The notes under the pieces: generated by a model
Told to the model about the DNA's origin: nothing
Database searches by the model: none
What the model saw: only the letters and a program-made list of their open reading frames with translations
Made by a program: the position numbers and the translations under genes
Shown: one piece after another, positions 3,165 to 28,559 of the stretch
Layout of the letters: every line of letters begins with the position of its first letter
Position numbering within the stretch: position 1 is the first letter of the stretch
From: Candidatus Moraniibacteriota bacterium
GTDB taxonomy: Bacteria; Patescibacteriota; Minisyncoccia; Moranbacterales; GCA-2747515
Direction: 5' to 3'
NCBI GenBank assembly: GCA_038208115.1
Contig: JBBQZC010000004.1
Coordinates: 10,530 to 74,529 of the forward strand
DNA length: 64,000 bases

Positions 3165-3201
3165 AAAATCAAAAATCAAAAAAACCTCTCGCAAGGAGAG
3201 G
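3165..3201 (-). terminator. Rho-independent terminator downstream of the LamG pseudopilin gene
   Basis: Hairpin cctctc-gcaag-gagagg at 3185-3201. On the minus strand it is followed by a T-rich run (plus-strand A run 3165-3184). Confidence 0.55.
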
Positions 3202-3218
3202 CTTAACGTGCATATTCA

Positions 3219-4643
3219 TTATGGCAGCGGAAAACAATCACCGTCTTTACTAGAGTTATTCCATGCACTAACACATAATCGATTGATTTCCTCATCTGTG
3301 ATCGCGCGATCCCAGATACGCACATCATCAATCGCACCTTTGAAATAACTTGTAGGACCTTTTGCTGCACCGATGTAAAGCAATTCAGCACTCACATCAC
3401 TAATATTCGTACTCAATGGATTTCCTTTTTTAATATTTTTATCCACAATAATTTCCAAATTACCTGTATCAGACTTTGTCCATCTCCCTACTACATGATG
3501 CCAGTCTGTATCATTGATAGCGGTATCTGAACAGATTGTTTTATCTTGCACATGAAAACACACCTTTCCAGCATTAAGATATATTTCATATCCTTTATTA
3601 TTACTCACTCGAGAAATCAAGCTCCCACTAGATTTAACCACATTTTGTTTGATCCATAATGAGATTGCGATACCATCTGTCGGATTCAATTTATCTTCTT
3701 TTTTATTTTTATCAACACAATTAAATTCCTCATCCTCACAACTGCCATTCACCCACATCGCCAAATAATCATTTCCATCAAAGTAGAGAGCTTCTTTCGC
3801 ATCAGACCCGAGCGGAGCAGACGGATCCACTTCTGCAGAGACGATACCCTCCACCCATGCGCCATCTGGATTTTCTCCATCATCAGAGCCTTTTTTTTGT
3901 GGAATCATAAAAATAGCATTATCATCTGCACAACCTGTAAAAGATTTAATTTTGCCGATTGTTTCACCAGCCTCATCCTTAATATCGCTCGATGCAGATT
4001 TTAGCTGGCATAGAGTCAATACCTGATCATTCTTGGATGAGTCTTGTGCGATTAATGATATCTTATCATCAGGCTCAGATGCAAGTCGTGCCACTTGTGC
4101 TCGATCTTCAAAAGACCAATGTGCGAGGAGCCCTCGCGTCAAGCTGTCACGCAATTTCACAAAAACGGCACGCACAGCGTTATTATAATTTCCTGCAACC
4201 TTAAATCGGGACACATTTGCCAACTTTTCATTACACTGTGTAATAGGGATCGTTGTCGTCCACCCAGATCCTGTATCTCCTGGCGCACCCTCTTTATATG
4301 CAGAGATAATAAATCGTGTATCCGTATTACCGATCGTTGCCGCGACGTTGGGATTATTACTGTTTACACAAGGGTACTGCTCAGGATTATAAATACTAGT
4401 TAGCGCTGATGCCATCGCATCTAGATCATCACTTTGATCCAAATCCTTGTATAATTGTTGCAAAAATTCCTCCATGCCCTTATCTGCATTTTGAAAAGCC
4501 GTCGTGGAATTGACAGAGATATCAGCACTGCGCCTCTCGATCAAGGTCACGCCCGCGACAGAAAAAGCCGCAATGAGAATGAAAGAAAGCACAATGAGTG
4601 CAAAAACGAGTATGGAACCTTTTTGTTTTTTTATCCTATGCAT
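3219..4643 (-). CDS. PilX-like minor pseudopilin with C-terminal LamG/concanavalin-A-like lectin domain (candidate pilus tip adhesin)
   Basis: N-terminus 'KQKGSILVFALIVLSFILIAAFSVAG' resembles the PilX N-terminal domain. The C-terminal ~200 aa ('YFDGNDYL...ISLWIK...DWHHVVGRW...GAIDDVRIWDRAITDEEI') is a LamG-type fold. Last gene of the minor pilin operon. Confidence 0.5.
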   Translation of the reverse strand: MHRIKKQKGSILVFALIVLSFILIAAFSVAGVTLIERRSADISVNSTTAFQNADKGMEEFLQQLYKDLDQSDDLDAMASALTSIYNPEQYPCVNSNNPNVAATIGNTDTRFIISAYKEGAPGDTGSGWTTTIPITQCNEKLANVSRFKVAGNYNNAVRAVFVKLRDSLTRGLLAHWSFEDRAQVARLASEPDDKISLIAQDSSKNDQVLTLCQLKSASSDIKDEAGETIGKIKSFTGCADDNAIFMIPQKKGSDDGENPDGAWVEGIVSAEVDPSAPLGSDAKEALYFDGNDYLAMWVNGSCEDEEFNCVDKNKKEDKLNPTDGIAISLWIKQNVVKSSGSLISRVSNNKGYEIYLNAGKVCFHVQDKTICSDTAINDTDWHHVVGRWTKSDTGNLEIIVDKNIKKGNPLSTNISDVSAELLYIGAAKGPTSYFKGAIDDVRIWDRAITDEEINRLCVSAWNNSSKDGDCFPLP

Positions 4644-4654
4644 ATTTAAAATAT

Positions 4655-5371
4655 CTAAAAACTAAGATCAGGTGGATAATCTCTGAGCGATGTCGATGTT
4701 TGAATATAGATTGGATGATCTTTTTTGTCTTCATACAATGCATCGGTTTTCGCTGGTCGTACCGTCATACTCATTGTTACGCGACCAATCGTTTTTGTTT
4801 TCCTCTCTCCTGTGGAGTCATCATAGCGTGTCGGCGCAACCCAAAAAGTACCCATCACATCACCGCTCGTCAACCGTTGATATTTGGTAATGGCATTACT
4901 ACTGTATGTAGTATCTAATAGACATTTTTCGATCTCATCGAACTGTATACCCTCTGTAGATTCTACCCATAAAGCAGAGTCTCCTGGATAAGGGTGAGAT
5001 TGCTCGCCAAGATGAAATGAAAATCGCATACACAATTCTTGTGAAAAATCATATAAAACCAACTTATGTGTAGTTTCGATTTCTTGTAAAATAAAATCAT
5101 CTTCATTAAACTGCGTCGGATCTCGCAAATCTGATCCATCTTCACCCAAAACGGTTGCCGTACGCAATGTTTTGGAGATATAATTCATAGCAAATTGTGC
5201 ATTTTCTAGATCACTTTGTGACACACGCGCATACCGGTATGCACTGATCTGTTGTGCAAAAATCTGTACAATCGCTACCATGATGATGAGGAAAATGAAA
5301 ACCGACACCATGAGTTCTACAAGTGTGAATCCTTTTTTGATAGTGTCACCTCCATTAGATTTGCCTTTCAT
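4655..5371 (-). CDS. type IV minor pseudopilin (PilW-like)
   Basis: Prepilin signal 'KKGFTLVELMVSVFIFLII', a class III leader with G-1 and E+5. Confidence 0.6.
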   Translation of the reverse strand: MKGKSNGGDTIKKGFTLVELMVSVFIFLIIMVAIVQIFAQQISAYRYARVSQSDLENAQFAMNYISKTLRTATVLGEDGSDLRDPTQFNEDDFILQEIETTHKLVLYDFSQELCMRFSFHLGEQSHPYPGDSALWVESTEGIQFDEIEKCLLDTTYSSNAITKYQRLTSGDVMGTFWVAPTRYDDSTGERKTKTIGRVTMSMTVRPAKTDALYEDKKDHPIYIQTSTSLRDYPPDLSF

Positions 5372-5399
5372 TCTTCATTTTTAATGCTTAATTAATATA

Positions 5400-6038
5400 T
5401 CAGTCACCATAATTGATCCACGACGTCAAACGGGTTTGTGCAAAAACACAATTTTGTGAAATTTTACAATCACGTTCCACATTGTCCGCACTCGGAAAAT
5501 TATTTTGTCCACCAAAGATCACCACGCTAGTCACTTTTGCTAAGACATCGTTTGGCGGGTCAACATTTGTTTTAGAATATTGTATGTAAATACGTCGTCG
5601 CAAATGTGAATCTTCATAGAGAGTCCCTCCTCCTGAATGTGAATACATACCAGTCTCTGTATTGAGATACAACTTATCATCAGGGCTTACGCCGCTACAA
5701 ACTAATCGTGAGGATGCACCTGATGTTGCATAATCTATCGTGCACGATGTGAAAGTGGAAACATTGTATGATGGCCAATTATAATCAGATTCTGGATCAA
5801 AAGCTGTACACCTTTCTGTTCCAGTACCACATGTTTCTTGTGTCACATTATTATCTCGCACATTTCGCACGAGTTCCACGCCTTCTTGTGCCAGAAGTGT
5901 CGCTATCACTGCATCGCGACTCCCTTTCATATTATCTATGCTACGCACAGTCAAAAAAACCGCATCTACAATGCCCACAAGCAATATGAACATCGCGACC
6001 ATCACTTCTCCGATTGAAAAACCCTTTTTATTCCTCAT
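5400..6038 (-). CDS. type IV minor pseudopilin (PilV-like)
   Basis: Prepilin-type N-terminus 'KKGFSIGEVMVAMFILLVGI'. Confidence 0.6.
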   Translation of the reverse strand: MRNKKGFSIGEVMVAMFILLVGIVDAVFLTVRSIDNMKGSRDAVIATLLAQEGVELVRNVRDNNVTQETCGTGTERCTAFDPESDYNWPSYNVSTFTSCTIDYATSGASSRLVCSGVSPDDKLYLNTETGMYSHSGGGTLYEDSHLRRRIYIQYSKTNVDPPNDVLAKVTSVVIFGGQNNFPSADNVERDCKISQNCVFAQTRLTSWINYGD

Positions 6039-6046
6039 ATATTATC

Positions 6047-6658
6047 TTAAAATACACACGCTACATCCGCATCATTGAAGCCAAGCTCTTCAATCAATCC
6101 CGTCGCATGCACACAAATATGAAATTTCCTCCCATCATTTAATATCAAGACTAGATCAGTCCCAATCGATGTTTCTTGACCATCAAAATATTTCCCATAC
6201 GGCACACCAAACGCCACAAAATTTGTGGAGACACGAGTACTTCCATTTGTTGCACTTGTAAACATTTCAATTGCAATCTTTTTTTGTGATAAATTTTCAT
6301 CGAGCAGTTTCTCCGTATATGACTGTGGATCATTATCATCAGCACACACCTCCTGTAACGCCCGATATGAACCTTTAATCTGATATGTGTCTCCATCACT
6401 TGTAAAAATAAAACCGCATGGCAACATATCACTTGCACGCTGCTTCCCTGTCAATGCATTATTTTGTGTCTCACGAATTGCCGCAGCAACTTCACGCCCA
6501 ACTGCTTCGAGTTTTTTCTTGTCACGATCTTTGAATGAGACGACAAACATCGTCAATGTCATAATCGTGATAATCGCGACGATGATAATCATCTCAAGAA
6601 ATGAAAAACCTTTTTTAGTCTGATATATTTTTTTTGTTTTTTGTACAATATTTTTCAT
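6047..6658 (-). CDS. type IV minor pseudopilin (FimT/GspH-like)
   Basis: Prepilin motif 'KKGFSFLEMIIIVAIITIM' after a longer leader. Confidence 0.55.
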   Translation of the reverse strand: MKNIVQKTKKIYQTKKGFSFLEMIIIVAIITIMTLTMFVVSFKDRDKKKLEAVGREVAAAIRETQNNALTGKQRASDMLPCGFIFTSDGDTYQIKGSYRALQEVCADDNDPQSYTEKLLDENLSQKKIAIEMFTSATNGSTRVSTNFVAFGVPYGKYFDGQETSIGTDLVLILNDGRKFHICVHATGLIEELGFNDADVACVF

Positions 6659-6690
6659 AGATATATTATATCACAAGTTTTTCACATCAT

Positions 6691-7506
6691 CTATAGTAAA
6701 GCCGAGACATACTCTGGATACATATATGTGATCAAAAAAGCGAGGAATAATCCCGTTATGAGAAATGGTCCGAATGGCACTTCTGATTTCATCGTTTTTT
6801 GCCTGAGGAGCATCAGTACGATGCCATATACCGCACCGATACAAAAAGCCAATAATAATGCGACAAACGTCCCGATCGGACCCAGAAGCAATCCAACTGC
6901 AATCGCGACAAATGCATCGCCATACCCCATCCATGTCTCATCAGAATAATAACTCAACCCAAAGAAAAAACAAAAAGCTGTCAATGCGCTCATGCCATGC
7001 AAAAAAGAGGTGCTACTCCATATATCAGTCAGAGGCGGTACATGGTATATGTCTGTAACAATATTTGCAATAACGAGGATGCCAATCGCAAACCACATGA
7101 CATTCATGGGTATCTCCATATATTTTGCGTCATAGACCAATATCACGACCAGACTCGCAAAGACAAATACATATAAAACCGCGACAAGCAGAGAGCTAAT
7201 CGTATGTGTCACAAAAAGATACCCGACACATCCGAAGACACCACTGACTAAAATCTCCACCAATGGATATTGCCATGAGATCTTCTTCGTGCAGTTACGA
7301 CATTTACCACGTAAAATCGCAAAACTTATGACAGGGATATTATCATACCAGAGAATTGGTTTACTACACTTGGGACAATGCGACCTCTCCAATATCATCC
7401 CCTCACCTGTCCGTAAACGACTAATCACCACATTACAAAAACTGCCGATTAAAAGTCCGTATACTACAAAAAAAATTATATAAAGCATATATCTATTACA
7501 ACTCAA
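6691..7506 (-). CDS. pilD: prepilin peptidase (A24 family)
   Basis: Zn-binding 'CPKCSKP...CRNCTKKI' tetracysteine, eight TM segments and the active-site region 'MGYGDAFVAIAVGLLLG'. Confidence 0.9.
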   Translation of the reverse strand: MSCNRYMLYIIFFVVYGLLIGSFCNVVISRLRTGEGMILERSHCPKCSKPILWYDNIPVISFAILRGKCRNCTKKISWQYPLVEILVSGVFGCVGYLFVTHTISSLLVAVLYVFVFASLVVILVYDAKYMEIPMNVMWFAIGILVIANIVTDIYHVPPLTDIWSSTSFLHGMSALTAFCFFFGLSYYSDETWMGYGDAFVAIAVGLLLGPIGTFVALLLAFCIGAVYGIVLMLLRQKTMKSEVPFGPFLITGLFLAFLITYMYPEYVSALL

Positions 7507-7566
7507 TCCTATTTTTCACTACATAACCGAAAATCTCAGGAAGTTTTTTTAATTCTTAACTATCAT

Positions 7567-7983
7567 TTAGCATCCATCACTACTCACAAAACCAGTTTCA
7601 CTATACGTTGCACTTATACAGCTCCCTGCATTGAGCAATCCCGGCGTTGCCACGATCACAAAATGTCCATTATAATTACACTGATCTGTCACTGATATTG
7701 TGCCGATATTATCATCCCCAGGATACACCGCTTCGACTGAGTCCGCATCACTACAGATATTTATAGCAGATCCAGCTCCACTCAATTTATCTTGGATCTC
7801 TTCATTATCATCACAGCACACGATTCCTGCCTTATAGACACTTGACGCACTCGCCTTGAAAGACGCGTCTTTTGCCTTATTGCGGGCAAAATTCAGAGCA
7901 GTCAAAACGATTGTTGCCAAAATACCGATAATCGCTATCGTAACGAGTAATTCGATAAGCGTAAACGCTTTTTTCGTTTGCAT
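7567..7983 (-). CDS. type IV pilin (class III signal, Ala at -1)
   Basis: '[23 protein letters not shown]' N-terminus. C-terminal region has a paired-Cys 'CCDDN' motif and a terminal Cys. No Shine-Dalgarno sequence next to the ATG. Confidence 0.8.
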
Positions 7984-8014: not shown

Positions 8015-8060
8015 TTGTAATCATCATACCATATTCATGAAAAATTTACAGTATTTTGAA
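8015..8060 (-). promoter_or_regulatory. candidate promoter of the pilin/pilD/minor-pilin operon
   Basis: Minus-strand extended -10 'TGGTATGAT' (plus 8023-8031) with a weak -35 'TGTAAA' 17 nt upstream. Confidence 0.3.
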
Positions 8061-10927: not shown

Positions 10928-11677
10928 ATGTCTGCTAGAAAAATCCAAAAAAAATCCAATATTGTCGTCTATACAGCCATATTTGGAAATTATGATGTGC
11001 TAAACAAAGTGCCTCACAATATTAATTGTGATTTTGTCTGTTTTACTGATAATTCTCAATTAAAATCAAAAAAATTTGATATTAGACTTGTAGAGTCAAC
11101 ACATTCCGATTCCACACGAAATGCTCGCATGTATAAAGTTTTGCCACACAAATTTTTATCAGAATATAAATATTCAATATGGATTGACGCTTCTATGAAA
11201 TTGAAAAAAAACTTTGATCCAGAAAAAATGATTGAGAAATATTTAAAAAATGAAAAGTTTGCAATTTTTAAACATGATGAGAGAGATTGCGTTTATGATG
11301 AATTTGAAATATGCATTAAACATAAAAGAGATAACGTCGTCGTCATGCAAAAACAGAGAGATTTTTATAAAGAGTCAAACTATCCGAAGCACACTGGGTT
11401 AGTTTCTTCAGGATTTATAATTCGTGAGCACAATGATCCACATATCTCAAACTTTGATGACATGTGGTGGAAAGAAATTTGTAAATTTAGCAAAAGAGAT
11501 CAATTAAGTTTTAATTATGTTGCACACAAAATTAATTTACACTACACAAAAATAGAAGGTAATATTTTTAATAACAAAAATTTCTTTTATGTTGGTCATA
11601 ATGGATTTACACCAAGATACCGTGCTTTTATGAAACACGCACTGACATTTCTCAATAAAATCAATCCTCTAAAATAA
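10928..11677 (+). CDS. DUF616-like putative glycosyltransferase
   Basis: 'VVYTAIFGNYDVL...CFTDN' resembles the TOD1/DUF616 family. It is the only plus-strand gene in the cluster. Confidence 0.35.
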   Translation: MSARKIQKKSNIVVYTAIFGNYDVLNKVPHNINCDFVCFTDNSQLKSKKFDIRLVESTHSDSTRNARMYKVLPHKFLSEYKYSIWIDASMKLKKNFDPEKMIEKYLKNEKFAIFKHDERDCVYDEFEICIKHKRDNVVVMQKQRDFYKESNYPKHTGLVSSGFIIREHNDPHISNFDDMWWKEICKFSKRDQLSFNYVAHKINLHYTKIEGNIFNNKNFFYVGHNGFTPRYRAFMKHALTFLNKINPLK

Positions 11678-16552: not shown

Positions 16553-16556
16553 ATAA

Positions 16557-18335: not shown

Positions 18336-18737
18336 CTAACAACCTGTGTCGTTAAAAGTACATCCTACTTGCGTGCATATTGCTCTAGCGCATTCAGCTG
18401 CACCGAAACTTGCTGTATACTTAAAGTCACCACTTCCATCAGCTAAAGTCACGTCAGTTGCTCCTGTCCAGTTTCCAGATGGATCCAAAAGTGGCCATTG
18501 TGCCTCACTACCTGCACACATTGAGCTTCTCACCGTTGCTGATGAAGGGGTCACAAGGTTCAGATTATCATCCATACACAGAATTGCTCCTGGAACTGTT
18601 GATGAAATTGATGACTTCACAGATGCATCCTTAGCTTTTTGTCGTGCACTGTTCAACGATACCAAAACAATAGATGCTAAGATACCGATGATCGCGATCA
18701 CGATCAAAAGTTCAATTAATGTAAAACCTTTTTTCAT
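18336..18737 (-). CDS. pilA: type IV pilin (probable major pilin)
   Basis: '[25 protein letters not shown]' canonical class III signal with G-1. Strong SD 'GGAGGTG' 7 nt upstream. C-terminal Cys pairs. Confidence 0.85.
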
Positions 18738-18783
18738 TTACATTTCACCTCCATTCCATTTTTGTTTTTATCTTTACTCATAC

Positions 18784-18813
18784 AGTATATATCATAACTA
18801 CAAAAAATGTAAT
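18784..18813 (-). promoter_or_regulatory. candidate sigma-70-type promoter for pilA
   Basis: Minus strand TTACAT-N17-TATACT (plus 18807-18812 and 18784-18789). The same region contains direct repeats 'aactttcactttt'. Confidence 0.35.
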
Positions 18814-18913
18814 ATTATTGTCCACAGTTTATCCACTCTTGCCAAAACTGAAATCGTCTCACCTGAATTCTTCATTCTCCAATTTTTAACTTTTCACTTT
18901 CAACTTTCACTTT

Positions 18914-20122
18914 TTATAATTGTCCTGCGATATTATAAATCGGTAGCAAAACGGAAAACACCAACACACCGACACCCAGACCGAGAATTACGATCAAGAT
19001 TGGCTCAATGATTGATGACAAGTTTCGTGTGATTTGATCCACTTCTGACGTATAAAATCGTGCGATGTCTTCCAGGATATCACTCATACGCCCTGTTTCT
19101 TCTCCGATCTTAATCATGCTGGATACCATCGGAGGTATTTCTTCATGTTTGAAAAATTCTTTATTGATCTCACCACCCACTTTTACATCTTGCGCAGATT
19201 TCAAAATAATATTTTTATAGACGATATTATCCACGACATCAGCTACGACGATGAGCGCACGCACAATCGGGATACCACCCTTGAGAAGTACAGAGAGGTT
19301 TTCTGCAAAACGCGTAATGTAGACATAGCGAAATAATTGTCCGACAACGGGAATACGCAACTTGATACGATCCCATTCTCTACTCCCTTCTTCAGATCGC
19401 GCATAGTAGATCATCGATGCAATCACACCAACGATAACGACCAACACAGCCCACCAATACACCTGCATGAAATCCCCTATTTTGATCATCAAATTTGTAT
19501 ACCATGGGATCTCCACATTGAGATCTTTGATCACTTGTGTCAATTTCGGTAATATCCATGTCATCGTCAAAAATCCGATCACAGATGCTACACTGATCAC
19601 AAAAATCGGATACATCAGTGCTCCACGCACTTTACTTTTCAATTGATAATTTTGTTCTGCGCTTTCCGCGACAAAATCGATTGCTCCTTGCAAATTACCA
19701 GAAACTTCTCCAGCTCTGATCATGCTCACGGCAAGTGTCGTAAATATATTTTCATGTTTTGCAAAGCTCTCCGAGATCGACATACCATCCTCCACATCTG
19801 CAGCTACCTCAGTAACCACGATCCGCAACTGTGCATTTTCTGTCTGTGCATGGATCGTACGTAATGATGGTGCGATCGGAATCTTTGCACCCACAAGTGT
19901 CGATAACTGTCGATAAAAAAGCAAGAGATCTTTTTGCGTCACTGATGCTGTCAATCTTTCGATTGCAGACACTATCGATGTGCCCTGCTTGAATTCTTTT
20001 AATTCAATTGGGATGAGATCATTTTTTTGCAACAGCTTGGTCGCTGTTTCTTTGTCAATTGCCTCGATCTTTCCGCGCTTCACTTCGCCAGTTTGTGTCT
20101 GCGCCTTAAATTTAAATTGCAT
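18914..20122 (-). CDS. pilC: type IV pilus platform protein PilC/GspF
   Basis: 402 aa with two GspF repeats and three TM segments. Ends 'LLPIYNIAGQL'. Confidence 0.9.
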   Translation of the reverse strand: MQFKFKAQTQTGEVKRGKIEAIDKETATKLLQKNDLIPIELKEFKQGTSIVSAIERLTASVTQKDLLLFYRQLSTLVGAKIPIAPSLRTIHAQTENAQLRIVVTEVAADVEDGMSISESFAKHENIFTTLAVSMIRAGEVSGNLQGAIDFVAESAEQNYQLKSKVRGALMYPIFVISVASVIGFLTMTWILPKLTQVIKDLNVEIPWYTNLMIKIGDFMQVYWWAVLVVIVGVIASMIYYARSEEGSREWDRIKLRIPVVGQLFRYVYITRFAENLSVLLKGGIPIVRALIVVADVVDNIVYKNIILKSAQDVKVGGEINKEFFKHEEIPPMVSSMIKIGEETGRMSDILEDIARFYTSEVDQITRNLSSIIEPILIVILGLGVGVLVFSVLLPIYNIAGQL

Positions 20123-20259
20123 AAAAAATAGTTTATAAAGTTAAAAGTTTATAAAGTTTGAAATGTGTAAAATTCATATTTTTTCGTATTATAAGTATTA
20201 TAATTTTTTGTAATGATCTATGAAATGTGCACCTTTAACATTATGAACTGCTTTCCTCT

Positions 20260-21360
20260 CTATTCATCAATATGGATTTGTTCACCACGACCGACTAACA
20301 TACGGACATAATCACGATTTTTTGCATATGTCATAGCTTGCTCCAATGTGATATGACCCGCCTGCAATAATTCCGCGAGAGATTTGTCCAGTGAAATCAT
20401 ACCGTCTTTTGAACTGGTTTCAATGACTGTGTCAATCTGATATGTTTTATCTTCACGTATCAAGTTTTCGATTGCGTGATTTTTGATCATGATCTCCACC
20501 GCCGGAATACGACCGCCATTTGTATGCGGGATCAAACGTTGTGACATGACACCTAAAAGTACATTTGATAACTGTGAACGGATCTGATTTTGCTGATGTG
20601 ATGGAAATGTATCGACGATACGATCGATCGTTTGTGCTGAATCATTTGTATGCAATGTTGCAAAAATCAGATGGCCCGTCTCAGCTGCAGTGATCGCCGT
20701 ACCGATTGTCTCGAGATCGCGCATCTCACCGATGAGAATCACATTCGTATCTTCACGAAGTGCCGCACGCAAAGCGCCTGAAAATGTCTGTGAATCCTGT
20801 CCGATTTCACGCTGATTGATAATACAGAGATCTTGCTCATACATATATTCGATCGGATCCTCAATCGTGATAATATGGTTTTTCTTATTATGATTGATAT
20901 AATCCACCAACGCAGCGAGCGTCGTCGACTTTCCATGACCGACTGGTCCTGTGACGAGGAAGAGTCCCTGAGAGAAATTTGCAAACTCATATACGAGTTG
21001 TGGCACACCCAATTCATCGAGTTGTCGGATTTTGCTGTTGATCACACGCATAACGATTCCCACATACCCTCTTTGATAAAAGACATTTGTACGAAAACGG
21101 ACTTTATCTTCTAGGCTATATGAAAAATCGATCTCTCCGTTCTGTAGAAATTTTTCTTTATGATGTGCATTCATGAAATAATCTGCAAATGCCTTTGTGT
21201 CCTCTGGAAGCAAAGCTGCCTCCTGTTCCAATGGGATCAATTTCCCGTCAATACGCAAGGTCGGATGTCGACCGACGGCAAAATGCAAATCTGATGCATT
21301 TTGTTGTGCACCGAGTCGCAATAAATTTTTCAACCGCTGTTCTACATGTAATGAGCTCAT
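20260..21360 (-). CDS. pilT: twitching-motility/retraction ATPase PilT
   Basis: N-terminus 'LRLGAQQNASDLHF', Walker A 'GPVGHGKSTT' and His/Asp boxes. 366 aa, typical PilT size. Confidence 0.9.
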   Translation of the reverse strand: MSSLHVEQRLKNLLRLGAQQNASDLHFAVGRHPTLRIDGKLIPLEQEAALLPEDTKAFADYFMNAHHKEKFLQNGEIDFSYSLEDKVRFRTNVFYQRGYVGIVMRVINSKIRQLDELGVPQLVYEFANFSQGLFLVTGPVGHGKSTTLAALVDYINHNKKNHIITIEDPIEYMYEQDLCIINQREIGQDSQTFSGALRAALREDTNVILIGEMRDLETIGTAITAAETGHLIFATLHTNDSAQTIDRIVDTFPSHQQNQIRSQLSNVLLGVMSQRLIPHTNGGRIPAVEIMIKNHAIENLIREDKTYQIDTVIETSSKDGMISLDKSLAELLQAGHITLEQAMTYAKNRDYVRMLVGRGEQIHIDE

Positions 21361-21384
21361 AATTTTTTGTATTTATCAATTTTT

Positions 21385-21780
21385 CTATAGCATGTATTTT
21401 TGCACTTTTGCCAAAACTTCTGATGGTGTAAAATGTGATTTGATCAAAAAATCCTTTGCACCCAGTGCCATGCCACGATCCACATCTTCCTTTTGTGATA
21501 AATTCGTCAAAAGCACAACTGGAATTCCTTTCCACTCTTCACGATGACTGATGGCTTCCAAAACATCGAATCCATCCATGTATGGCATCACAATATCCAA
21601 GAGCATAATGTGTGGTCGCACACCTGCTTCCAATTTTTCGATCGCATCTCTACCATTATTTGCCAAAACGACATTGTATCCAGCATCTTTCAATTTCACT
21701 TCATAAATATCCCCGATAAATGCATCATCTTCAGCGATCATGATCGTCTTTTTTTCTTGCTGTAATTCTTCTTGTGTCAT
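21385..21780 (-). CDS. single-domain response regulator (CheY-like receiver, PilH-like)
   Basis: 'IMIAEDDAFIG...LLDIVMPYMDGFDVL...PVVLLTNL...K' contains the receiver-domain acid pocket, T/S and K. Confidence 0.85.
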   Translation of the reverse strand: MTQEELQQEKKTIMIAEDDAFIGDIYEVKLKDAGYNVVLANNGRDAIEKLEAGVRPHIMLLDIVMPYMDGFDVLEAISHREEWKGIPVVLLTNLSQKEDVDRGMALGAKDFLIKSHFTPSEVLAKVQKYML

Positions 21781-21798
21781 ATGCGTATTCTATAATTA

Positions 21799-23649
21799 TT
21801 ATTCTTCTTCCTTATGAATCTTTTTTTGCTTTTTGATATCCTCCAGCATTTGTTCTTCATCTGTGATCTCATCCAGCTTCCCTCCGATGCTCATATCACC
21901 TTCTGTCACACGTTCCAATTCTGATAGGGTTGTCAGTCCTAACAACATTTTCAACATACCATCCTGCTTAAGAGTGATGAATCCTTTTGTCCGCGCGAGC
22001 TTTTCGATTTTGACGATATTTCCATCTTCTTCGACAATCATATTTTGCATCTCATTATCAAGCTCAATTGCCTCATACAATGCTAATCGACCCTTCAATC
22101 CCAACTGACCACATTTTTCGCAACCTTTCCCATGATGTAATTTGATACCATCTGAGAGATCCACTCCATATTTTTTGATCTCTTCTTCTGGGACACTTGC
22201 AATTTCATTTTCTATCCGTTTAATGATATTTTCTGGCACCTGCATTTCCTCTTTGCAGTTTTCACAAATGCTACGCACGAGCCTCTGTGCAGCAATCACG
22301 CGCACGGAAGATGCAATAAGAAATGGCTCCACGCCGAGATCAATAAGTCGAGGTAGCGCACCGATCGCATTATTTGTATGTACTGTAGAAAAAACGAGAT
22401 GTCCAGTAAGCGCAGCATGCACAGCGAGTTCTGCTGTCTCACCATCGCGGATCTCCCCAACCATGATCACATTTGGATCTTGACGCAAGATACTACGAAG
22501 TCCACTCGCAAATGAATATCCGATTTCTGGTTTTACTTGTGATTGGTTGATCCCTGGCACAAAATATTCTACTGGATCTTCAAGTGTGATGATATTGCGC
22601 TCCTCACCATTCAATATTTTTAAAAAAGCATACAGCGTGGTCGATTTTCCAGATCCTGTCGGACCAGTCATGAGGATCATCCCAAACGGATCTCTGATTC
22701 TTTTGAGAAACATCTCGTGTTGCGTCCCCATCATACCCAGTTCCGTCAGATCAAATGTCTGACGATCTTTTTCCAAAACACGCATTACGATCTTTTCTCC
22801 TTCCACTACAGGTAAGCTCGATACACGAAAATCAACATCATCTCCCTTATCATTGATCCGGAAACGCCCATCCTGTGGCTTGCGCTTTTCATCGATCTTC
22901 AAATTTGAAAGAATTTTGATACGAGATATCACAGCCTTACCCACTTCCTCTGGAAATGTGAGAGATGCATGCAAAACACCATCCTGACGAAAGCGTACAC
23001 GATATGTTTTATCGATTGGCTCGATATGAATATCTGACGCTTTGCCATCCAATGCATGTTTGATAATCACGTGTACCAATTTTGCGACAGGCGCATCTTG
23101 AATACTATCTCGATCGCCCGCATTTGATTGATCAGATTTTACTTCACCTTCAATTTCAAATGATTGCACGACATCCTCAACAGCTTTTTCTGCGCTACCA
23201 TACAAGGCAAAGAATTTTTCTAAAAGAATATCTGAAATGAGATACACAGCGATATTCATACGATCCTTTTGCGCAATAAACCGTAAAACGTTGAGTGCAT
23301 CAACACTTTGCACATCCACCATCGCAACGTGTAGTGTATTTGATGCAACATCCTTATCAAATATCACCATGTGATTTTTACGCGCAATGTCTTCTGCAAG
23401 TGATTGAATCGACTCTCGACTAGATCGTGAGGGAACACTTAACAAAGCCTCCACACCCAGCTCTTTTGCGCGAGCGACGATTGCATCATCGGAATCATTT
23501 TCGTCTGTCTTTGCCTGCGGTGTATCTTGCGGTAGATCTTGCGGTGCATTTTCAGTCACGTCAGATTGTGTAATCTGCACGTCATTATCACCATCTTCTT
23601 CTATCACAATTTTTTCTTCTATTGTGTTATTATTATCTTCTTGCATCAT
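21799..23649 (-). CDS. pilB: type IV pilus assembly ATPase PilB/GspE
   Basis: Walker A 'GPTGSGKSTTLYA', C-terminal Zn tetracysteine 'CENCKEE...CEKCGQ'. Acidic N-terminal extension and a GSPII_E N-terminal domain. Confidence 0.9.
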   Translation of the reverse strand: MMQEDNNNTIEEKIVIEEDGDNDVQITQSDVTENAPQDLPQDTPQAKTDENDSDDAIVARAKELGVEALLSVPSRSSRESIQSLAEDIARKNHMVIFDKDVASNTLHVAMVDVQSVDALNVLRFIAQKDRMNIAVYLISDILLEKFFALYGSAEKAVEDVVQSFEIEGEVKSDQSNAGDRDSIQDAPVAKLVHVIIKHALDGKASDIHIEPIDKTYRVRFRQDGVLHASLTFPEEVGKAVISRIKILSNLKIDEKRKPQDGRFRINDKGDDVDFRVSSLPVVEGEKIVMRVLEKDRQTFDLTELGMMGTQHEMFLKRIRDPFGMILMTGPTGSGKSTTLYAFLKILNGEERNIITLEDPVEYFVPGINQSQVKPEIGYSFASGLRSILRQDPNVIMVGEIRDGETAELAVHAALTGHLVFSTVHTNNAIGALPRLIDLGVEPFLIASSVRVIAAQRLVRSICENCKEEMQVPENIIKRIENEIASVPEEEIKKYGVDLSDGIKLHHGKGCEKCGQLGLKGRLALYEAIELDNEMQNMIVEEDGNIVKIEKLARTKGFITLKQDGMLKMLLGLTTLSELERVTEGDMSIGGKLDEITDEEQMLEDIKKQKKIHKEEE

Positions 23650-23655
23650 TTTGTT

Positions 23656-24369
23656 TTATGGTAAAAATGGATTTACACGCTGTTTTGGCTCTGTGACCAA
23701 TTTATCCGTCTCCGCGCTTGAATTCATCACCGTATCGATTAGATCATAATCTACAACCTGATTAAAATACGTGGGATCAATTTTTTCTTCTCCAGGAATA
23801 TATCCATACGCAAACGTGATCACACCACTCAATAATTGTTCTTGAGGAACAGCATCTTCCTCTCCTTCTTTTGCATCTTTCTTTTCAACTTTTGTAAGCT
23901 CAAATGTCTTAAATGCATACAGTCTCTTCAAATGAAACAATTCATTCGAAAATTTCTTCACACTCTCATAGGTTCCACTGACAAGCATCTTTCCCTCGAT
24001 CAAATATGACGCTTGATCAGTTGCTGCACTTGATTTCACATCCTGACGACCCTCAGCAAATCCCATAGAAAAAAGACTAACACCTGTTTTTTCTGCAAGC
24101 TGTGATACATCACTGAGCAATATTTCCTCACGCTGATCATTAGGTACAAAGTCATTCACAAAGTCCACTTCTGTTGAATGACTTTTGACACTTTGCACGA
24201 ACGACTTAACACTGTTCAATTTGCTATTTGCAGCAGCAAGAGATTCTTCTTTTTGTATTATTAGTTGTTTTTCTGCTGATACTGATTTCCAAATTGGCAC
24301 AACTTGTCCAATAACAAAATACATGACAAGTAGCAGTATTACAGGAAACATGAGTATTCTTATGATCAT
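23656..24369 (-). CDS. PilO-like type IV pilus assembly protein
   Basis: Single N-terminal TM, a coiled-coil segment and then a soluble domain. Position between the PilN-like gene and pilB. Confidence 0.45.
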   Translation of the reverse strand: MIIRILMFPVILLLVMYFVIGQVVPIWKSVSAEKQLIIQKEESLAAANSKLNSVKSFVQSVKSHSTEVDFVNDFVPNDQREEILLSDVSQLAEKTGVSLFSMGFAEGRQDVKSSAATDQASYLIEGKMLVSGTYESVKKFSNELFHLKRLYAFKTFELTKVEKKDAKEGEEDAVPQEQLLSGVITFAYGYIPGEEKIDPTYFNQVVDYDLIDTVMNSSAETDKLVTEPKQRVNPFLP

Positions 24370-24408
24370 ATTTTTATTTTATTTTATAAAAACCACTTAT
24401 TAATATAA

Positions 24409-25206
24409 TTACTGATTCACTTTTACTGAAGTATTTTCGGACTGCGTCGTATCAACTTGCACACTCGAACCGTCAGATTGTGCATCGACTTGCACACGGG
24501 ATCCATCCGATTGCACATCGACCCCATTTGAGCCTGATGTATCACTTTGCGTCTGATTCATACCTGCATCTCCATTTTTTTCAAATGGCATCTTTTTATA
24601 ACCATTTACATCCATCGTCAATGTAAATATGATCCGACCAGACTCGTCGCGATCTGTAGTCCCTACTTCGACATTGTCAAAAAAAGTACTCTTCTTGAAC
24701 ATTGCAATTTGCTGTGCCATTACATCAAATGAATCTGCATCTGCAGAAATCGTGATATTGCCTCTTCCTGTAATGACAGCACTCGCTGTCCCTACTGTCT
24801 TTTTTTCCTTAGCACCGGAATTATGTTGAAATGATTTCAATACGACACGATTTCCAGAATTATCAGATTCTTTCAATATCATAATTTTTTCAATCTCTTG
24901 CAATATATCATTTGTATCATAGCCACGATATATCTCTTTTTCCATCGCATCCGCACGCACAGCAAAATCAGACACATCATCTGACATTGCGTTCTGTATT
25001 TGATCATTTACATCAAGTGTTTCTTGTTCCAAATCTGCAGAATGAGCCTTGAGAGAGCTATCCCACATTTTAAGTGCACCCCATACAATAAGCACTACAA
25101 CGAGAGTGCCAAAAGCGACTAATAAACCACGTGAAACCATTTTTTTCCGTGGAGCACCATCGAAATTGTCATCAGATGTGCTTTTAAAGCCTGTACCTGA
25201 AACCAT
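24409..25206 (-). CDS. PilN-like type IV pilus assembly protein with C-terminal repeat tail
   Basis: Short cytoplasmic N-terminus, one TM, a coiled coil and a periplasmic domain. The last ~45 aa are tandem 'VQVDxQSDGS' repeats. Confidence 0.45.
   Translation of the reverse strand: MVSGTGFKSTSDDNFDGAPRKKMVSRGLLVAFGTLVVVLIVWGALKMWDSSLKAHSADLEQETLDVNDQIQNAMSDDVSDFAVRADAMEKEIYRGYDTNDILQEIEKIMILKESDNSGNRVVLKSFQHNSGAKEKKTVGTASAVITGRGNITISADADSFDVMAQQIAMFKKSTFFDNVEVGTTDRDESGRIIFTLTMDVNGYKKMPFEKNGDAGMNQTQSDTSGSNGVDVQSDGSRVQVDAQSDGSSVQVDTTQSENTSVKVNQ
24420..24545. repeat. about 27-bp tandem direct repeats (3-4 copies) inside the 3' end of the PilN-like gene
   Basis: Repeated 'cgtcagattgtgcatcgacttgcacac'-like units visible at 24424-24505. 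Confidence 0.6.
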
Positions 25207-25240
25207 AATCTTTTATTTTAATGATTTAATTTATATATAT

Positions 25241-26287
25241 TTATTTATCTTTTTGATCTTCGATCTCACGAAGTGCTAACCCAATCGCAACAGAAAATGA
25301 TAATCCCAAATTCTTGATATCACCAGATGCTTTTTCATCATACACAATATGACTGAGCGGATTACCGATCGTCACTTTCAATCCCGTTAACTGCGTCAGG
25401 TATTCTGGTAAACCGACAAGACGTGCGCTCCCCCCACACAACACCAAAGACTCTACGACATCGCTTTTTTGAGTATCCAAAACACGCTTCACCTCATTTG
25501 CCACAAAATTCAATGAAGGAAAACCCACCTTGGTCGGACCAGTAAAAAAATCTTCACCACCCTCTTTGAGTGCTACAGCTCTTTCTCGTGAAATATTTAA
25601 TCCTTGCATAATCGCATTTGTCATGTCTGCACCTCCGATGTCAACACTACGACTGACATGTACAATGCCATTTTCAATAAGCACAATATTTGTGGTCTTG
25701 GCGCCAATATCAACTAAAATAAACCGTCCCTTTGTACTACCGATAACCGATCGTGCCAGAGAAAATGATTCTAATTCCAAAGAATCGATCGCAATATTCA
25801 CATCCTTGAAAAGTCCGTCGTAATATTGCACTTCACTTTTTGGTGCAGCGACTAACAGAACTTTCATTGTTGGTTTTTCTTTATCTTTTTCATCTTCACT
25901 CAAGATCTCCCAGCTGACATTCACTTCATCAAGAGAGGCTGGTATGTATCGCCGAGATTCAAATTTGATCGCAGCAGCGACGTCTTTTTCGCTCATGCGA
26001 GGAAAATCAACGATCAACACGAGACCATTAAAACTCGGGATTGCCACAATCGCCTTACGTGCCGTTGGTTTCATTTGTACGAAAAGTTCCTTTAAAGCAT
26101 CGCTTAAACGTTTTGCATAATCGTTATCATATGCATCAGGTACTTCTTTGATATTGGTGACATTAACCCATCCATAATTCGTGAGATATGGTTTTCCCTT
26201 GGACAACTTTAATTCAACAGCTTTGATCGATTGCGTCCCAAAATCAACGCCAAGATAATATTCGGAATGTGATGAAAACAATGACAT
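25241..26287 (-). CDS. pilM: type IV pilus assembly ATPase-fold protein PilM
   Basis: Actin/FtsA-like. 'YLGVDFGTQSIKAVEL' phosphate-1 motif and 'LVDIGAKTTN'. Confidence 0.8.
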   Translation of the reverse strand: MSLFSSHSEYYLGVDFGTQSIKAVELKLSKGKPYLTNYGWVNVTNIKEVPDAYDNDYAKRLSDALKELFVQMKPTARKAIVAIPSFNGLVLIVDFPRMSEKDVAAAIKFESRRYIPASLDEVNVSWEILSEDEKDKEKPTMKVLLVAAPKSEVQYYDGLFKDVNIAIDSLELESFSLARSVIGSTKGRFILVDIGAKTTNIVLIENGIVHVSRSVDIGGADMTNAIMQGLNISRERAVALKEGGEDFFTGPTKVGFPSLNFVANEVKRVLDTQKSDVVESLVLCGGSARLVGLPEYLTQLTGLKVTIGNPLSHIVYDEKASGDIKNLGLSFSVAIGLALREIEDQKDK

Positions 26288-27551: not shown

Positions 27552-28559
27552 TCACGGGGTAACGTTTTTATCATCACCCTTATCCAAATCATCGTTTTTT
27601 ACTTCCTGTGCGTAAACCTTATCTTTTACTATTTCATCTTTCTTGCTTATCTGATCATATGTCTCACCATCCAAACTTACCAGAGTATCACTTCCGCTAC
27701 TTGATGTGATTTTAAATTCACGTAGCGCATTGAATTCTTTAACATCGCCTACGCGAATAGTATCATTGAATACATCCACATCATCTGCTGTAACACTGAG
27801 CCATATGGGATTTTTTTCCGTTTTGATAAATAAATGAATTGGCTCCAACATTAGCTCTTCCTTTTGTTCTTGTTCTACGACATATTGTGCATCAATAATA
27901 AGATTCTCAACAGTTTCTTTGTCAAATTTATTCACACTTTTAACTTGCACAGTATTAATACCTTGTGCCAAACCAACATCATCCACAAATAATCCATCTA
28001 TATCAACAAATACTTGCTGTCCATTGATAAAAACGCGTGAATTATTACGCGTCTTCCCTTGGACACGGACAGAATCACTCATCACAACACTATCATGGGC
28101 TGGACTATCCACGATTAACCATGGGGATGATATGAAATTATCCACACTAAAATACAAATACATTCCCACAGCGCTCAAAATCAAAAGACCAAACCCAACT
28201 ACCAAAATGCGTGGTGTGAACACAAATCGTGGTACTTTTGGCAACTTACTAAATGTTTCCTCCTCATCTGTATTATTGATGTTATGATACACACTATATT
28301 CTCTCTCAAATAGATTCAATAAAACCTTCTCAGGAACACCAAAAAAACGTGCCTGAGATTGCACAAAGCCCTTCACATACACTTTCGTTGGCAAAATATT
28401 ATATTGTCCTTTTTCCAACGCATCCAGATATTGCTCTTTGACATTGATTTTTCGTGAAAGATCATGTATTCGCATGCGACGATCTTCACGAAGTTGTCGT
28501 AACTTTTCTCCAAGTGTCAAAGAACCTACCTTTTTACGTACAAAACTTCGATCATTCAT
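27552..28559 (-). CDS. RodZ-like helix-turn-helix (HTH) membrane protein (DUF4115 C-terminal)
   Basis: N-terminal XRE-like HTH ('LGEKLRQLREDRRMRIHDLSRKINV'), a single TM and a C-terminal beta domain. Confidence 0.55.
   Translation of the reverse strand: MNDRSFVRKKVGSLTLGEKLRQLREDRRMRIHDLSRKINVKEQYLDALEKGQYNILPTKVYVKGFVQSQARFFGVPEKVLLNLFEREYSVYHNINNTDEEETFSKLPKVPRFVFTPRILVVGFGLLILSAVGMYLYFSVDNFISSPWLIVDSPAHDSVVMSDSVRVQGKTRNNSRVFINGQQVFVDIDGLFVDDVGLAQGINTVQVKSVNKFDKETVENLIIDAQYVVEQEQKEELMLEPIHLFIKTEKNPIWLSVTADDVDVFNDTIRVGDVKEFNALREFKITSSSGSDTLVSLDGETYDQISKKDEIVKDKVYAQEVKNDDLDKGDDKNVTP

Follow-up and report, generated by a model that had tools for sequence, protein, structure and literature searches.

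A PilX-like minor pilin with an appended LamG-type domain closes a type IV pilus operon of an uncultured Moraniibacteriota bacterium

The type IV pilus operon described here is in itself ordinary; in its last gene a probable pilus-tip subunit is joined to a lectin-like domain, as is already known from Streptococcus sanguinis and Saccharibacteria. Sequence comparison and structural modelling support the assignment of this 474-aa protein (mpK) as a PilX/GspK-type pilin module fused to a ConA/LamG-type β-sandwich. From these analyses we propose, with a probability of about 0.65, that the operon belongs to a retractile, monoderm-type, type IVa-like pilus displaying a LamG binding module at its tip, on a K cap devoid of Glu5. 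The DNA analysed, hereafter the window, is a 64,000-nt part of the genome of Candidatus Moraniibacteriota bacterium (GCA_038208115.1, contig JBBQZC010000004.1, positions 10,530-74,529, forward strand). The source organism is an uncultured, ultra-small bacterium (Patescibacteria/CPR).

An earlier note on this DNA had claimed six collinear genes at 3219-7983. Our ORF check found all six there, running from 7983 to 3219 on the minus strand with gaps of 8-60 nt between them: a pilin, PilD, three minor pilins and the 474-aa protein. The features are as follows (a slash marks the predicted cleavage site).

8023..8031, minus strand: extended -10 element (candidate), TGGTATGAT; lies in a 213-nt AT-rich intergenic region, 40 nt before the pilin ATG
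7567..7983, minus strand: pilA, type IV pilin, 138 aa; leader MQTKKA/FTLIELL..., Glu5, 6 Cys
6691..7506, minus strand: pilD, bifunctional prepilin peptidase / N-methyltransferase, 271 aa; A24_N_bact and Peptidase_A24
6047..6658, minus strand: minor pilin 1, 203 aa, putative H position (GspH/FimU/ComGD-like); class III motif ...TKKG/FSFLEM...
5400..6038, minus strand: minor pilin 2, 212 aa, putative I position (PilV/GspI-like); class III motif MRNKKG/FSIGEV...
4655..5371, minus strand: minor pilin 3, 238 aa, putative J position (GspJ/PilW/ComGF-like); ...IKKG/FTLVEL..., N_methyl E 8.7e-7
3219..4643, minus strand: mpK, whole gene, 474 aa, last of the operon
4149..4643, minus strand: mpK residues 1-165, PilX/GspK-type pilin module; leader MHRIKKQKG/S, hydrophobic alpha1N, no Glu5
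3264..4148, minus strand: mpK residues 166-460, Laminin_G_3 / ConA-like β-sandwich with a variable insert and a variable loop
3219..3263, minus strand: mpK C-terminal tail, residues 461-474 and stop codon; low confidence, variable, C470 in 33 of 37 homologues
3182..3204, minus strand: intrinsic-terminator-like hairpin, 9-bp stem followed by a T run, closing the operon

PilA is matched by N_methyl (E 4.5e-8) and TIGR02532 (E 2e-8). Its position -1 is Ala, not Gly (KKA/FTLIE), and its orthologues, which hold the same position in related loci, have Gly or Ala there. The pilD gene, upstream of the minor pilins, is complete; its product matches A24_N_bact (E 8.1e-31) and Peptidase_A24 (E 2.3e-10) and carries the catalytic and Zn motifs (two CxxC, CPKC44 and CRNC69; D126; GYGD194-197). 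A class III leader, short and basic with Gly/Ala at -1 and then ~20 hydrophobic residues, is found in 5/5 of the pilin-like operon proteins, and Glu5 in the pilin and minor pilins 1-3. The note had ascribed GFT/SxxE N-termini to all four proteins that follow PilD: three do carry G/F(S/T)xxE, but the 474-aa protein reads KG/SILVF, without Glu5, in agreement with the note's own remark that it is 'PilX-like'.

The best NCBIfam matches of the minor pilins track gene order (ComGD/GspH, PilV, GspJ/ComGF), all of them below cutoff and limited to the N-terminal ~60 residues. Minor pilin 1 matches ComGD (E 1.7e-5) and GspH (E 3.8e-5) weakly at its N-terminus, under the curated cutoffs, and minor pilin 2 matches TIGR02523 PilV (E 1.5e-5), likewise under cutoff; the C-terminus of the latter is highly conserved among 11 orthologues. 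For minor pilin 3 the weak matches are GspJ (4.9e-5), ComGF (3.8e-5) and Verru_Chthon cassette protein C (2e-8). Profile searches of the PDB with the three proteins reached alpha1 of pilins only, the match of minor pilin 1 being confined to that helix. The AF2 model of minor pilin 3 (pLDDT 85) has a helix at 17-71 and two sheets, and gave no significant Foldseek match in the PDB (best E 0.38). The sub-threshold N-terminal matches weakly suggest the labels H, I and J. Upstream, the TGGTATGAT pattern occurs 3 times in the window, where 1.0 would be expected, and a promoter consensus scan listed no minus-strand promoter ahead of the pilin in the region of 8023..8031; the element may be taken as a weak lead for the operon promoter. 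Downstream, the hairpin starts 15 nt past the last stop codon and is the sole stable element of the folded 251-nt spacer to ligA.

The pilin module of mpK begins MHRIKKQKG/SILVFALIVLSFILIAAFSVAGVTL, with a mean Kyte-Doolittle value of 2.64 over residues 10-34. Position +1 is Ser and position +5 is Phe (S-I-L-V-F) in place of Glu5; prediction tools would therefore probably not call a PilD site. Glu5 is characteristically missing from K-type caps, so its absence counts for the K subclass and not against pilin nature, and mpK, itself without Glu5, ends a block of four minor-pilin genes. All 37 homologues have G9-S10, which is almost invariant in the wider family too; C92 and C137 are also invariant. 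In the AF2 model (pTM 0.79; pLDDT 80-94 in the pilin part), a long alpha1 helix (10-67) packs on an antiparallel four-stranded β-sheet (strands 111-118, 131-133, 146-151 and 159-163). In Pfam, mpK has no PilX_N (PF14341) match even at E<=10 and no N_methyl match, and the precomputed Pfam list shows no N_methyl for its homologues. PilX_N is weakly matched by 5/37 homologues (best 0.034) and by 14/36 long relatives (best 3.7e-9). A profile of the module finds stand-alone proteins of 132-166 aa that are annotated as PilX or bear PilX_N (E 1e-13 to 1e-18), in alignments that run end to end. The family comprises 1966 representative clusters, many of the relatives being stand-alone PilX proteins of 135-175 aa.

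The C-terminal module is recognized as Laminin_G_3 (PF13385) over residues 318-454, scoring 88.5 bits (E 6.5e-25) where the gathering cutoff is 27.6, and the same domain is matched by 37/37 homologues. Structure prediction of 3219-4643, the check proposed in the note, yields a ConA/LamG-type sandwich: the predicted fold is a two-sheet jelly roll, structurally closest to carbohydrate-binding modules and to receptor-binding domains of toxins. The PilX-like N-terminus and C-terminal ConA/LamG domain that had been claimed for this protein are supported by the AF2 model, the Laminin_G_3 match and the homology of the module to PilX. Conservation is uneven along the protein. The junction of the two modules (residues 161-180) is its best-conserved stretch (top-residue frequency 0.88-0.93), whereas the LamG part contains a variable insert of 40-66 aa (residues 213-262) and a variable loop (residues 401-430). 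Mean pairwise identity is 76% in alpha1 and falls to 24-27% in the LamG insert and loops, a concentration of variability expected for a ligand-facing surface.

Computational comparison with related loci gave the order pilA-pilD-H-I-J-K-ligA in every Moraniibacteriota locus long enough to show it; together with the family E-values, this excludes chance. The K-type gene keeps its last place after three canonical minor pilins in all loci extending far enough. What it carries is exchanged: in one orthologous operon a Kelch β-propeller sits on the same pilin module, in the slot of LamG, and other relatives of the PilX module carry RCC1, LVIVD, VWA, Fib_succ_major, S74 or NHL-like C-terminal modules. 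A broader reading, which we hold only tentatively and consider rather doubtful, is that the PilX-type tip pilin without Glu5 would serve Moraniibacteriota and related Patescibacteria as a conserved carrier on which receptor-binding cassettes (LamG, Kelch, RCC1, LVIVD, NHL-like, VWA, Fib_succ_major, S74) are swapped at a fixed slot between the J minor pilin and ligA, cassette and hypervariable loops determining the range of partners or hosts in the manner of phage receptor-binding proteins. If so, a single gene would predict the partner specificity of uncultured CPR bacteria.

The operon is part of a pilus system whose machine block lies 10 kb upstream, behind a ~10-kb glycosylation island; in relatives (loci L017 and L018) the machine block is contiguous with the pilin operon. 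Pfam matches define the block here, the two T2SSE values being 1e-128 and 1e-46.

18336..26287, minus strand: pilus machine block, PilM to second pilin
26287-25241, minus strand: PilM (PilM_2 7e-40)
25206-24409, minus strand: PilN-like (PilN 0.036, weak)
24369-23656, minus strand: PilO (PilO 8e-7)
23649-21799, minus strand: PilB (T2SSE)
21780-21385, minus strand: response regulator (Response_reg 2e-21)
21360-20260, minus strand: PilT (T2SSE)
20122-18914, minus strand: PilC (T2SSF 2e-53)
18737-18336, minus strand: second pilin, MKKG/FTLIELL

The recA and ftsK genes adjoin pilM. The note had claimed that a PilY1-like gene is lacking, and indeed neither a PilY1-like protein nor PF05567 was found among the ORFs scanned in the 64-kb window (most of those of at least 150 aa, the unscanned ones being shorter than 340 aa). 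It had further suggested a tip adhesin 'replacing PilY1'. The C-terminal domain of PilY1 is a β-propeller and a Kelch propeller occupies the orthologous slot, so that a functional analogy is reasonable. 'Replacing' holds as analogy only, since secretin-less monoderm-type systems such as that of S. sanguinis, which use modular pilins, never had PilY1 (PMC9934059).

The pilus could work as follows. PilD should act on all five pilin-like proteins of the operon, cleaving and methylating them, and the four minor pilins, in the order H-I-J-K, would prime the pilus on the PilC/PilM-N-O platform. Pili grow from tip to base, so the priming complex would end at the distal tip. There mpK would be the K-type cap without Glu5, onto which a Laminin_G_3 sandwich has presumably been grafted through the highly conserved junction, and the displayed module would bind a surface ligand. 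PilB would then extend the pilus and PilT retract it, pulling the cell onto its target. For the K subunit we infer PilD processing, tip location, binding and the class of ligand. As ligand, a glycan carried by a partner cell or a substrate is the likeliest candidate, although not an assured one, since Laminin_G_3 domains also mediate protein-protein contacts.

Three other accounts were weighed against this tip-adhesin pilus. The LamG domain might be a structural or assembly cap without external ligand: comparable to the alpha-domain of GspK, it would add bulk to the K subunit and help to stabilise the complex of minor pilins, to prime it, or to control transit across the cell envelope. The well-conserved junction (residues 161-180, 0.88-0.93) and the pTM of 0.79 would suit two domains forming one rigid body better than a module on a tether, and K subunits elsewhere are bulky caps essential for assembly (PMC9934059). 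We nevertheless consider this account unlikely: the slot holds unrelated folds in relatives (Kelch, RCC1, LVIVD, VWA, Fib_succ_major) and many relatives are stand-alone PilX proteins of 135-175 aa, which makes the module dispensable for capping, while the LamG loops hold most of the variability and the closest folds are ligand-binding modules. Very unlikely, in our estimate, is that the 474-aa protein is neither processed by PilD nor part of the pilus, being an N-terminally anchored bitopic surface lectin that is merely co-transcribed. It lacks Glu5, a Phe/Met at +1 and any N_methyl or PilX_N match in Pfam, and this would fit such a lectin, as would the lack of predicted PilD sites in PilX1 and PilX2 of TM7x (PMC12206443). 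Yet Gly-Ser is kept where cleavage is predicted, without exception in the 37 homologues and almost so in the wider family; the homology to PilX-type minor pilins extends along the entire module; the gene has a fixed place, last after three canonical minor pilins; and filament-capping K subunits as a rule have no Glu5 (PMC9934059).

The machine might also have DNA uptake (competence) or, as a pseudopilus, secretion as its main function; the LamG-bearing K subunit would then capture DNA or substrates, for example, instead of serving cell adhesion. In CPR bacteria, which depend on scavenging for their building blocks, a role of type IV pili in uptake has been proposed; monoderm Com pili likewise have a ComGG-like subunit without Glu5 at the end, ComGD, ComGE and ComGF figure among the weak best matches of the minor pilins, and recA and ftsK lie beside pilM. 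However, PilT, PilM, PilO and the PilN-like protein indicate a T4aP-like rather than a Com-type machine, the cluster is devoid of ComEA, ComEC and secretin genes, LamG folds are not known as DNA binders, and thin-pilus pilin mutants of TM7x kept normal competence (PMC11623550). A machine mainly for uptake or secretion is accordingly very unlikely in our view, even if uptake and adhesion are not mutually exclusive.

Among known systems, mpK fits the concept of the modular pilin, a pilin module with a grafted extra module, and shares that extra module with the N_methyl plus PF13385 proteins of Raynaud et al. 2021 (PMC8179133). It does not fit their search definition. Earlier modular-pilin surveys missed the mpK family because it has no N_methyl signature; the 2021 survey required IPR012902/PF07963, which neither mpK nor its family matches, so that K-type carriers of this sort lie outside the catalogue. 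CofB and TcpB are initiator minor pilins of T4bP, CofB being tip-located with C-terminal β-sandwich/lectin-type domains (discussed in PMC8179133). The haloarchaeal TafC, a minor subunit of Tat-fimbriae (PMC11821415), has a LamG region in common with mpK (NCBIfam E 3.4e-9). Filament classes and assembly routes differ for all three, and the likeness is limited to the appended domain.

PilC of S. sanguinis (PDB 7OA7/7OA8) is a modular minor pilin with a ConA-like lectin module that binds glycans and was modelled at the tip (PMC9934059). It has no detectable sequence similarity to mpK, and a profile search of the PDB did not return it at E<=1. PilC has, besides a very short pilin moiety, a spacer of Ig-like type and a sandwich resembling galectins, whereas the mpK sandwich is of the Laminin_G_3/pentraxin type; moreover, the Glu5-less subunit of S. 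sanguinis is PilA and not PilC, whereas in mpK the lectin fold sits directly on the Glu5-less K-type subunit. PilX1 and PilX2 of Nanosynbacter lyticus TM7x come, like mpK, from Patescibacteria (ISME J 2025, PMC12206443 / PMC11623550). By their published descriptions they resemble mpK in being the largest minor pilins of the locus, with a non-canonical signal peptide, likewise without predicted PilD site, and a C-terminal module: in PilX1 a β-jelly-roll resembling L-type lectins, in PilX2 an RCC1 propeller, as also found on relatives of the mpK pilin module. PilX2 is needed for efficient host binding (PMC12206443). TM7x differs in belonging to Saccharibacteria, in having two pilus systems where one is visible in the 64-kb window, and in a PilX1 jelly roll that CD-search missed, the mpK module being a clear Laminin_G_3.

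PilY1 and Neisseria PilC, non-pilin adhesins at the tip of diderm T4aP, share with mpK the proposed role of a tip-associated adhesin on a minor-pilin complex, and relatives of mpK bear β-propellers (Kelch, RCC1, LVIVD, NHL-like) in the same position; PilY1 itself is not homologous, having no pilin helix, a length of ~1000 aa and a PF05567 propeller. GspK and PilX, the K subunits of the H-I-J-K core complex conserved in T2SS and T4aP, resemble mpK in ending a block of four minor-pilin genes and in lacking Glu5, with weak PilX_N matches in the mpK family. Bulk and the missing Glu5 imply that a K subunit can only cap the filament; in GspK the bulk is an inserted alpha-domain, whereas in mpK it is the C-terminal lectin-fold module. 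Proteobacterial PilX is small and works with a separate adhesin, PilY1, whereas mpK carries the module fused to the pilin itself.

All six ORFs of the pilin operon described in the earlier note were recovered, at exactly its coordinates and on the minus strand; a terminator-like hairpin follows them:

7983-7567, minus strand: type IV pilin (pilA), 138 aa, N-terminus MQTKKA-; N_methyl E 4.5e-8, TIGR02532 E 2e-8
7506-6691, minus strand: prepilin peptidase (PilD), 271 aa; A24_N_bact E 8.1e-31, Peptidase_A24 E 2.3e-10
6658-6047, minus strand: minor pilin in the H position, 203 aa, canonical G-F(S/T)xxE class III N-terminus
6038-5400, minus strand: minor pilin in the I position, 212 aa, canonical G-F(S/T)xxE class III N-terminus
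5371-4655, minus strand: minor pilin in the J position, 238 aa, canonical G-F(S/T)xxE class III N-terminus
4643-3219, minus strand: 474-aa protein, last gene of the operon
3204-3182, minus strand: terminator-like hairpin, 9-bp stem then a T run, 15 nt past the last stop codon

The genes are 8-60 nt apart, and folding and scanning of the 251 nt that separate the operon from ligA revealed the hairpin as the sole stable element (z -0.45); Rfam and tRNA scans of the operon returned no match. PilD carries two CxxC motifs, Asp126 and GYGD at 194-197. The GF(S/T)xxE motif had been attributed to all four proteins encoded after PilD; it holds for three of them but not for the 474-aa protein, which has Phe at +5. 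A motif scan of all window ORFs found only one more Glu5-type prepilin outside the operon, a second pilin (18737-18336) with a canonical KKG-FTLIE site. The -1 residue of the operon pilin is Ala, not Gly (KKA-FTLIE; residue 6, window 7966-7968), as in two orthologues from related loci (L003 and L006), the others having Gly. Since the two pilins are alike in size and Cys pattern, a heteropolymeric filament built from both is conceivable.

Compared with known families, the minor pilins fall into the gspH-I-J / fimU-pilV-pilW order: ComGD/GspH is the top match of the 203-aa protein, PilV that of the 212-aa protein and GspJ/ComGF that of the 238-aa protein. Every one of these matches is under the curated cutoff and confined to the N-terminal ~60 residues. 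PDB searches with three profiles, each built from 11-12 orthologues of one minor pilin, picked up nothing but the generic alpha1 helix that major pilins share. For the J-position protein, an AlphaFold2 model made from gathered homologues (pLDDT 85) gave nothing significant against the PDB in Foldseek; the top match had E 0.38 (streptavidin and similar noise), the sole pilin listed was TTHA1219 (E 0.74), and membership of GspJ/PilW was not demonstrated. The H-I-J labels are thus positional, not proven.

We then assessed the N-terminal part of the 474-aa protein, in which a PilX-like module had been proposed. Its N-terminus, MHRIKKQKG followed by SILVFALIVLSFILIAAFSVAG, consists of a basic leader with Gly at -1 and a hydrophobic stretch, and the window sequence lies below detection by Pfam PilX_N and N_methyl. 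With a profile of residues 1-170, however, stand-alone proteins 132-166 aa long are found (E 1e-13 to 1e-18). Several bear PilX_N or the name 'Tfp pilus assembly protein PilX', and the alignments span the whole module (the KGS site, S46/F50/G56/E58/Y65 of the helix, Cys137, Gly151 and Arg158). When 1.84 billion representative proteins were searched exhaustively by HMM, 1966 clusters came up at E<=1e-3, 143 of them at E<=1e-30, with family lengths of 135 to 572 aa. These profile and HMM matches support the proposal and argue that the N-terminal 165 residues are a genuine PilX-type minor-pilin module. Because it has no Glu5, the module groups with the K-type subunits (GspK/PilX), which cap the tip complex (PMC9934059).

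For the C-terminal part, Pfam gives Laminin_G_3 at 88.5 bits (E 6.5e-25; the gathering score is 27.6) and, more weakly, Pentaxin and Laminin_G_2; the family profile searched against the PDB finds neuronal pentraxin and PTX3 (E 1e-12 to 1e-10). The lectin-like beta-sandwich, on whose absence the earlier proposal would have foundered, is therefore present on computational grounds. The AlphaFold2 model, computed with the homologue alignment as input (mean pLDDT 82, pTM 0.79), begins with a helix of 58 residues (10-67), followed by a sheet of four strands (111-163) and a beta-sandwich (~172-460). All aligned homologues share Gly9-Ser10, and conservation peaks in the alpha1 region, where mean pairwise identity reaches 0.76. 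It drops to 0.50 across the pilin head and to 0.42 across the LamG module, with the lowest values in the insert 213-262 (0.27), whose length varies from 40 to 66 aa, and in the loop 401-430 (0.24). Apart from alpha1, the junction between the modules (residues 161-180) is the best-conserved stretch, which suggests that the pilin-LamG connection is fixed and not floppy. Five Cys are invariant and five more nearly so, a pattern that fits an extracellular disulfide-bonded protein.

Full-length homologues (n=36; 462-546 aa, 33-73% identity) come, where the source is named, exclusively from Candidatus Moraniibacteriota, Moranbacteria, Parcubacteria or the Patescibacteria group. Lower-scoring LamG matches of the first search (P0039-P0053) proved not to be pilins: they either are fragments or carry several LamG domains behind an ordinary signal peptide. 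Scanning the species genomes of GTDB gave 10 loci, seven labelled Moraniibacteriota and three 'Micavibrio'; the family is characteristic of Moraniibacteriota. The latter three loci (L007, L009, L011) lie in public MAGs titled 'Micavibrio sp.' that carry the Moraniibacteriota-type operon, and the label is probably a taxonomic mislabel.

The operon is one part of the pilus system, the T4aP-like remainder lying upstream on the same strand:

26287-25241, minus strand: PilM, E 7e-40
upstream block, minus strand: PilN-like protein, weak match, E 0.036
upstream block, minus strand: PilO
upstream block, minus strand: PilB, E 1e-128
21385-21780, minus strand: stand-alone receiver-domain response regulator, between pilB and pilT
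upstream block, minus strand: PilT, E 1e-46
upstream block, minus strand: PilC, E 2e-53
18737-18336, minus strand: second pilin, Glu5-type prepilin motif

No secretin was found among the window ORFs scanned. A PilY1 homologue was likewise sought and none found among these ORFs, in line with the earlier note. All related contigs with sufficient reach preserve the order pilA-pilD-three minor pilins-LamG-PilX-ligA, and the more distant L017 and L018 have a contiguous pilB-response regulator-pilT-pilC-pilin(s)-pilD-minor pilins-K-ligA-gatCA array in which the response regulator keeps its position. The pilus cluster also has two neighbours with putative surface or envelope products: one of 219 aa (31714-32373) bears Big_13/DUF4625 Ig-like domains, and the other (27552-28559) is RodZ-like, combining an HTH with a Glucodextran_B domain. 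A 1126-aa protein (39792-43172) unites GH18, polysaccharide deacetylase and GT2/chitin-synthase-like domains in a single chain.

A glycosylation island of ~10 kb (18254-8197) separates the second pilin from the pilA operon; at window positions 8-12 kb G+C falls to 0.28-0.30 versus ~0.40 elsewhere. Its gene content varies among relatives (L001, L003), and it is missing from L017 and L018. Besides a GT4, a further GT2, two methyltransferases and a Wzx-type flippase, it holds:

14784-13873: GtrB-like GT2
10928-11677, plus strand: TOD1/MUCI70-like glycosyltransferase
14789-18254: tandem pair of paralogues (565 aa and 587 aa; 49% identity), immediately downstream of the second pilin

The island possibly glycosylates the pilins or the cell surface. 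Both paralogues have ~12 predicted membrane spans, a DDxYFHF motif in the first loop and a C-terminal soluble part; a role as GT-C-type pilin glycosyltransferases was considered and found no support, no Pfam, NCBIfam or PDB sequence match being obtained, and calling them GT-C-like glycosyltransferases is a guess only.

The module carried by the K subunit differs among relatives. Among 36 long (at least 336 aa) representatives from the exhaustive HMM search, none of them among the homologues above, the C-terminal module is Laminin_G_3 in half (18/36), Fib_succ_major in six, LVIVD repeats in four, and an RCC1 propeller or Peptidase_S74 in two each; a Kelch propeller, an NHL/Vgb-lyase-like propeller and a VWA domain occur once each, and one C-terminal part has no recognisable domain. 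In L017, each operon gene is orthologous to its counterpart in the window (29-32% identity for the H, I and J proteins, 30% for the K pilin module over residues 8-164, 66% for PilT and 53% for LigA), and where the window protein has LamG, the L017 K subunit has a Kelch propeller. The C-terminal module has thus been swapped at a fixed locus. Other relatives are orphan genes: L015 (6442-8034; also L016) encodes a 530-aa protein joining a PilX-type module to an RCC1 beta-propeller, next to an 824-aa TraG/TrwB-like (DUF8128) gene and outside any pilin operon, and the LVIVD-type L019 is an orphan as well. The taxon-named RCC1 relative, which is the one beside the TraG/TrwB-like gene, is from Moraniibacteriota. 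That the K slot is an exchangeable receptor-binding cassette setting partner specificity across CPR lineages is a tentative idea that we would sooner doubt than hold. Differing modules in one slot offer a simple marker to compare partner specificity across metagenomes.

Anatomy, conservation, folds and module exchange are established here by computation; from what is known of H-I-J-K complexes, and from two experimental precedents, we infer processing, tip location, binding and ligand class, giving the following mechanism. The pilins would be processed by PilD; the four minor pilins would form a priming complex, which would end at the pilus tip; the Glu5-less K subunit would cap it and present the LamG module; and PilB and PilT would extend and retract the filament, allowing the LamG module to bind a ligand on a surface, most probably a glycan, and to pull the cell to it. 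As to the precedents, the lectin module of S. sanguinis PilC is a glycan binder that modelling places at the tip (PMC9934059), and PilX2 of TM7x (Nanosynbacter lyticus, a Saccharibacteria) is required for efficient host binding (PMC12206443). A purely structural cap is less likely, since unrelated folds replace the LamG module in relatives and many relatives are PilX proteins with no appended module. The same holds for a competence or secretion function: the minor pilins do have Com families among their weak best matches, but PilT, PilM, PilO and the PilN-like protein point to a T4aP-like machine. An unprocessed membrane-anchored lectin, with which the Phe at +5 could be reconciled, is also less likely for a protein whose Gly-Ser at the predicted cleavage site is invariant among homologues and whose N-terminal module aligns throughout with PilX-type minor pilins. 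Residues ~166-474 offer a well-defined domain, soluble and stabilised by Cys (eight lie in this part), for expression and for binding screens with glycans or with cell walls from bacteria that co-occur.

How ultra-small CPR bacteria recognise and attach to their partner cells is known mainly from Saccharibacteria. A 2021 catalogue of modular pilins placed those bearing PF13385 as an added module with the commonest architectures, and CPR bacteria supplied many examples (PMC8179133); reports from 2024-2025 describe lectin-like minor pilins of the PilX type in a CPR bacterium (PMC11623550, PMC12206443). Having no N_methyl signature, the K-type PilX carrier was missed by the 2021 catalogue. The specific additions made here are modest: this carrier, the Moraniibacteriota family, and a slot whose module differs between orthologous operons. 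The current understanding of type IV pili is unchanged and a known principle is extended, Moraniibacteriota being a second CPR lineage with this architecture: the 474-aa protein would have the same design as PilX1 and PilX2 of TM7x and PilC of S. sanguinis, that of a tip subunit bearing a lectin-like module.
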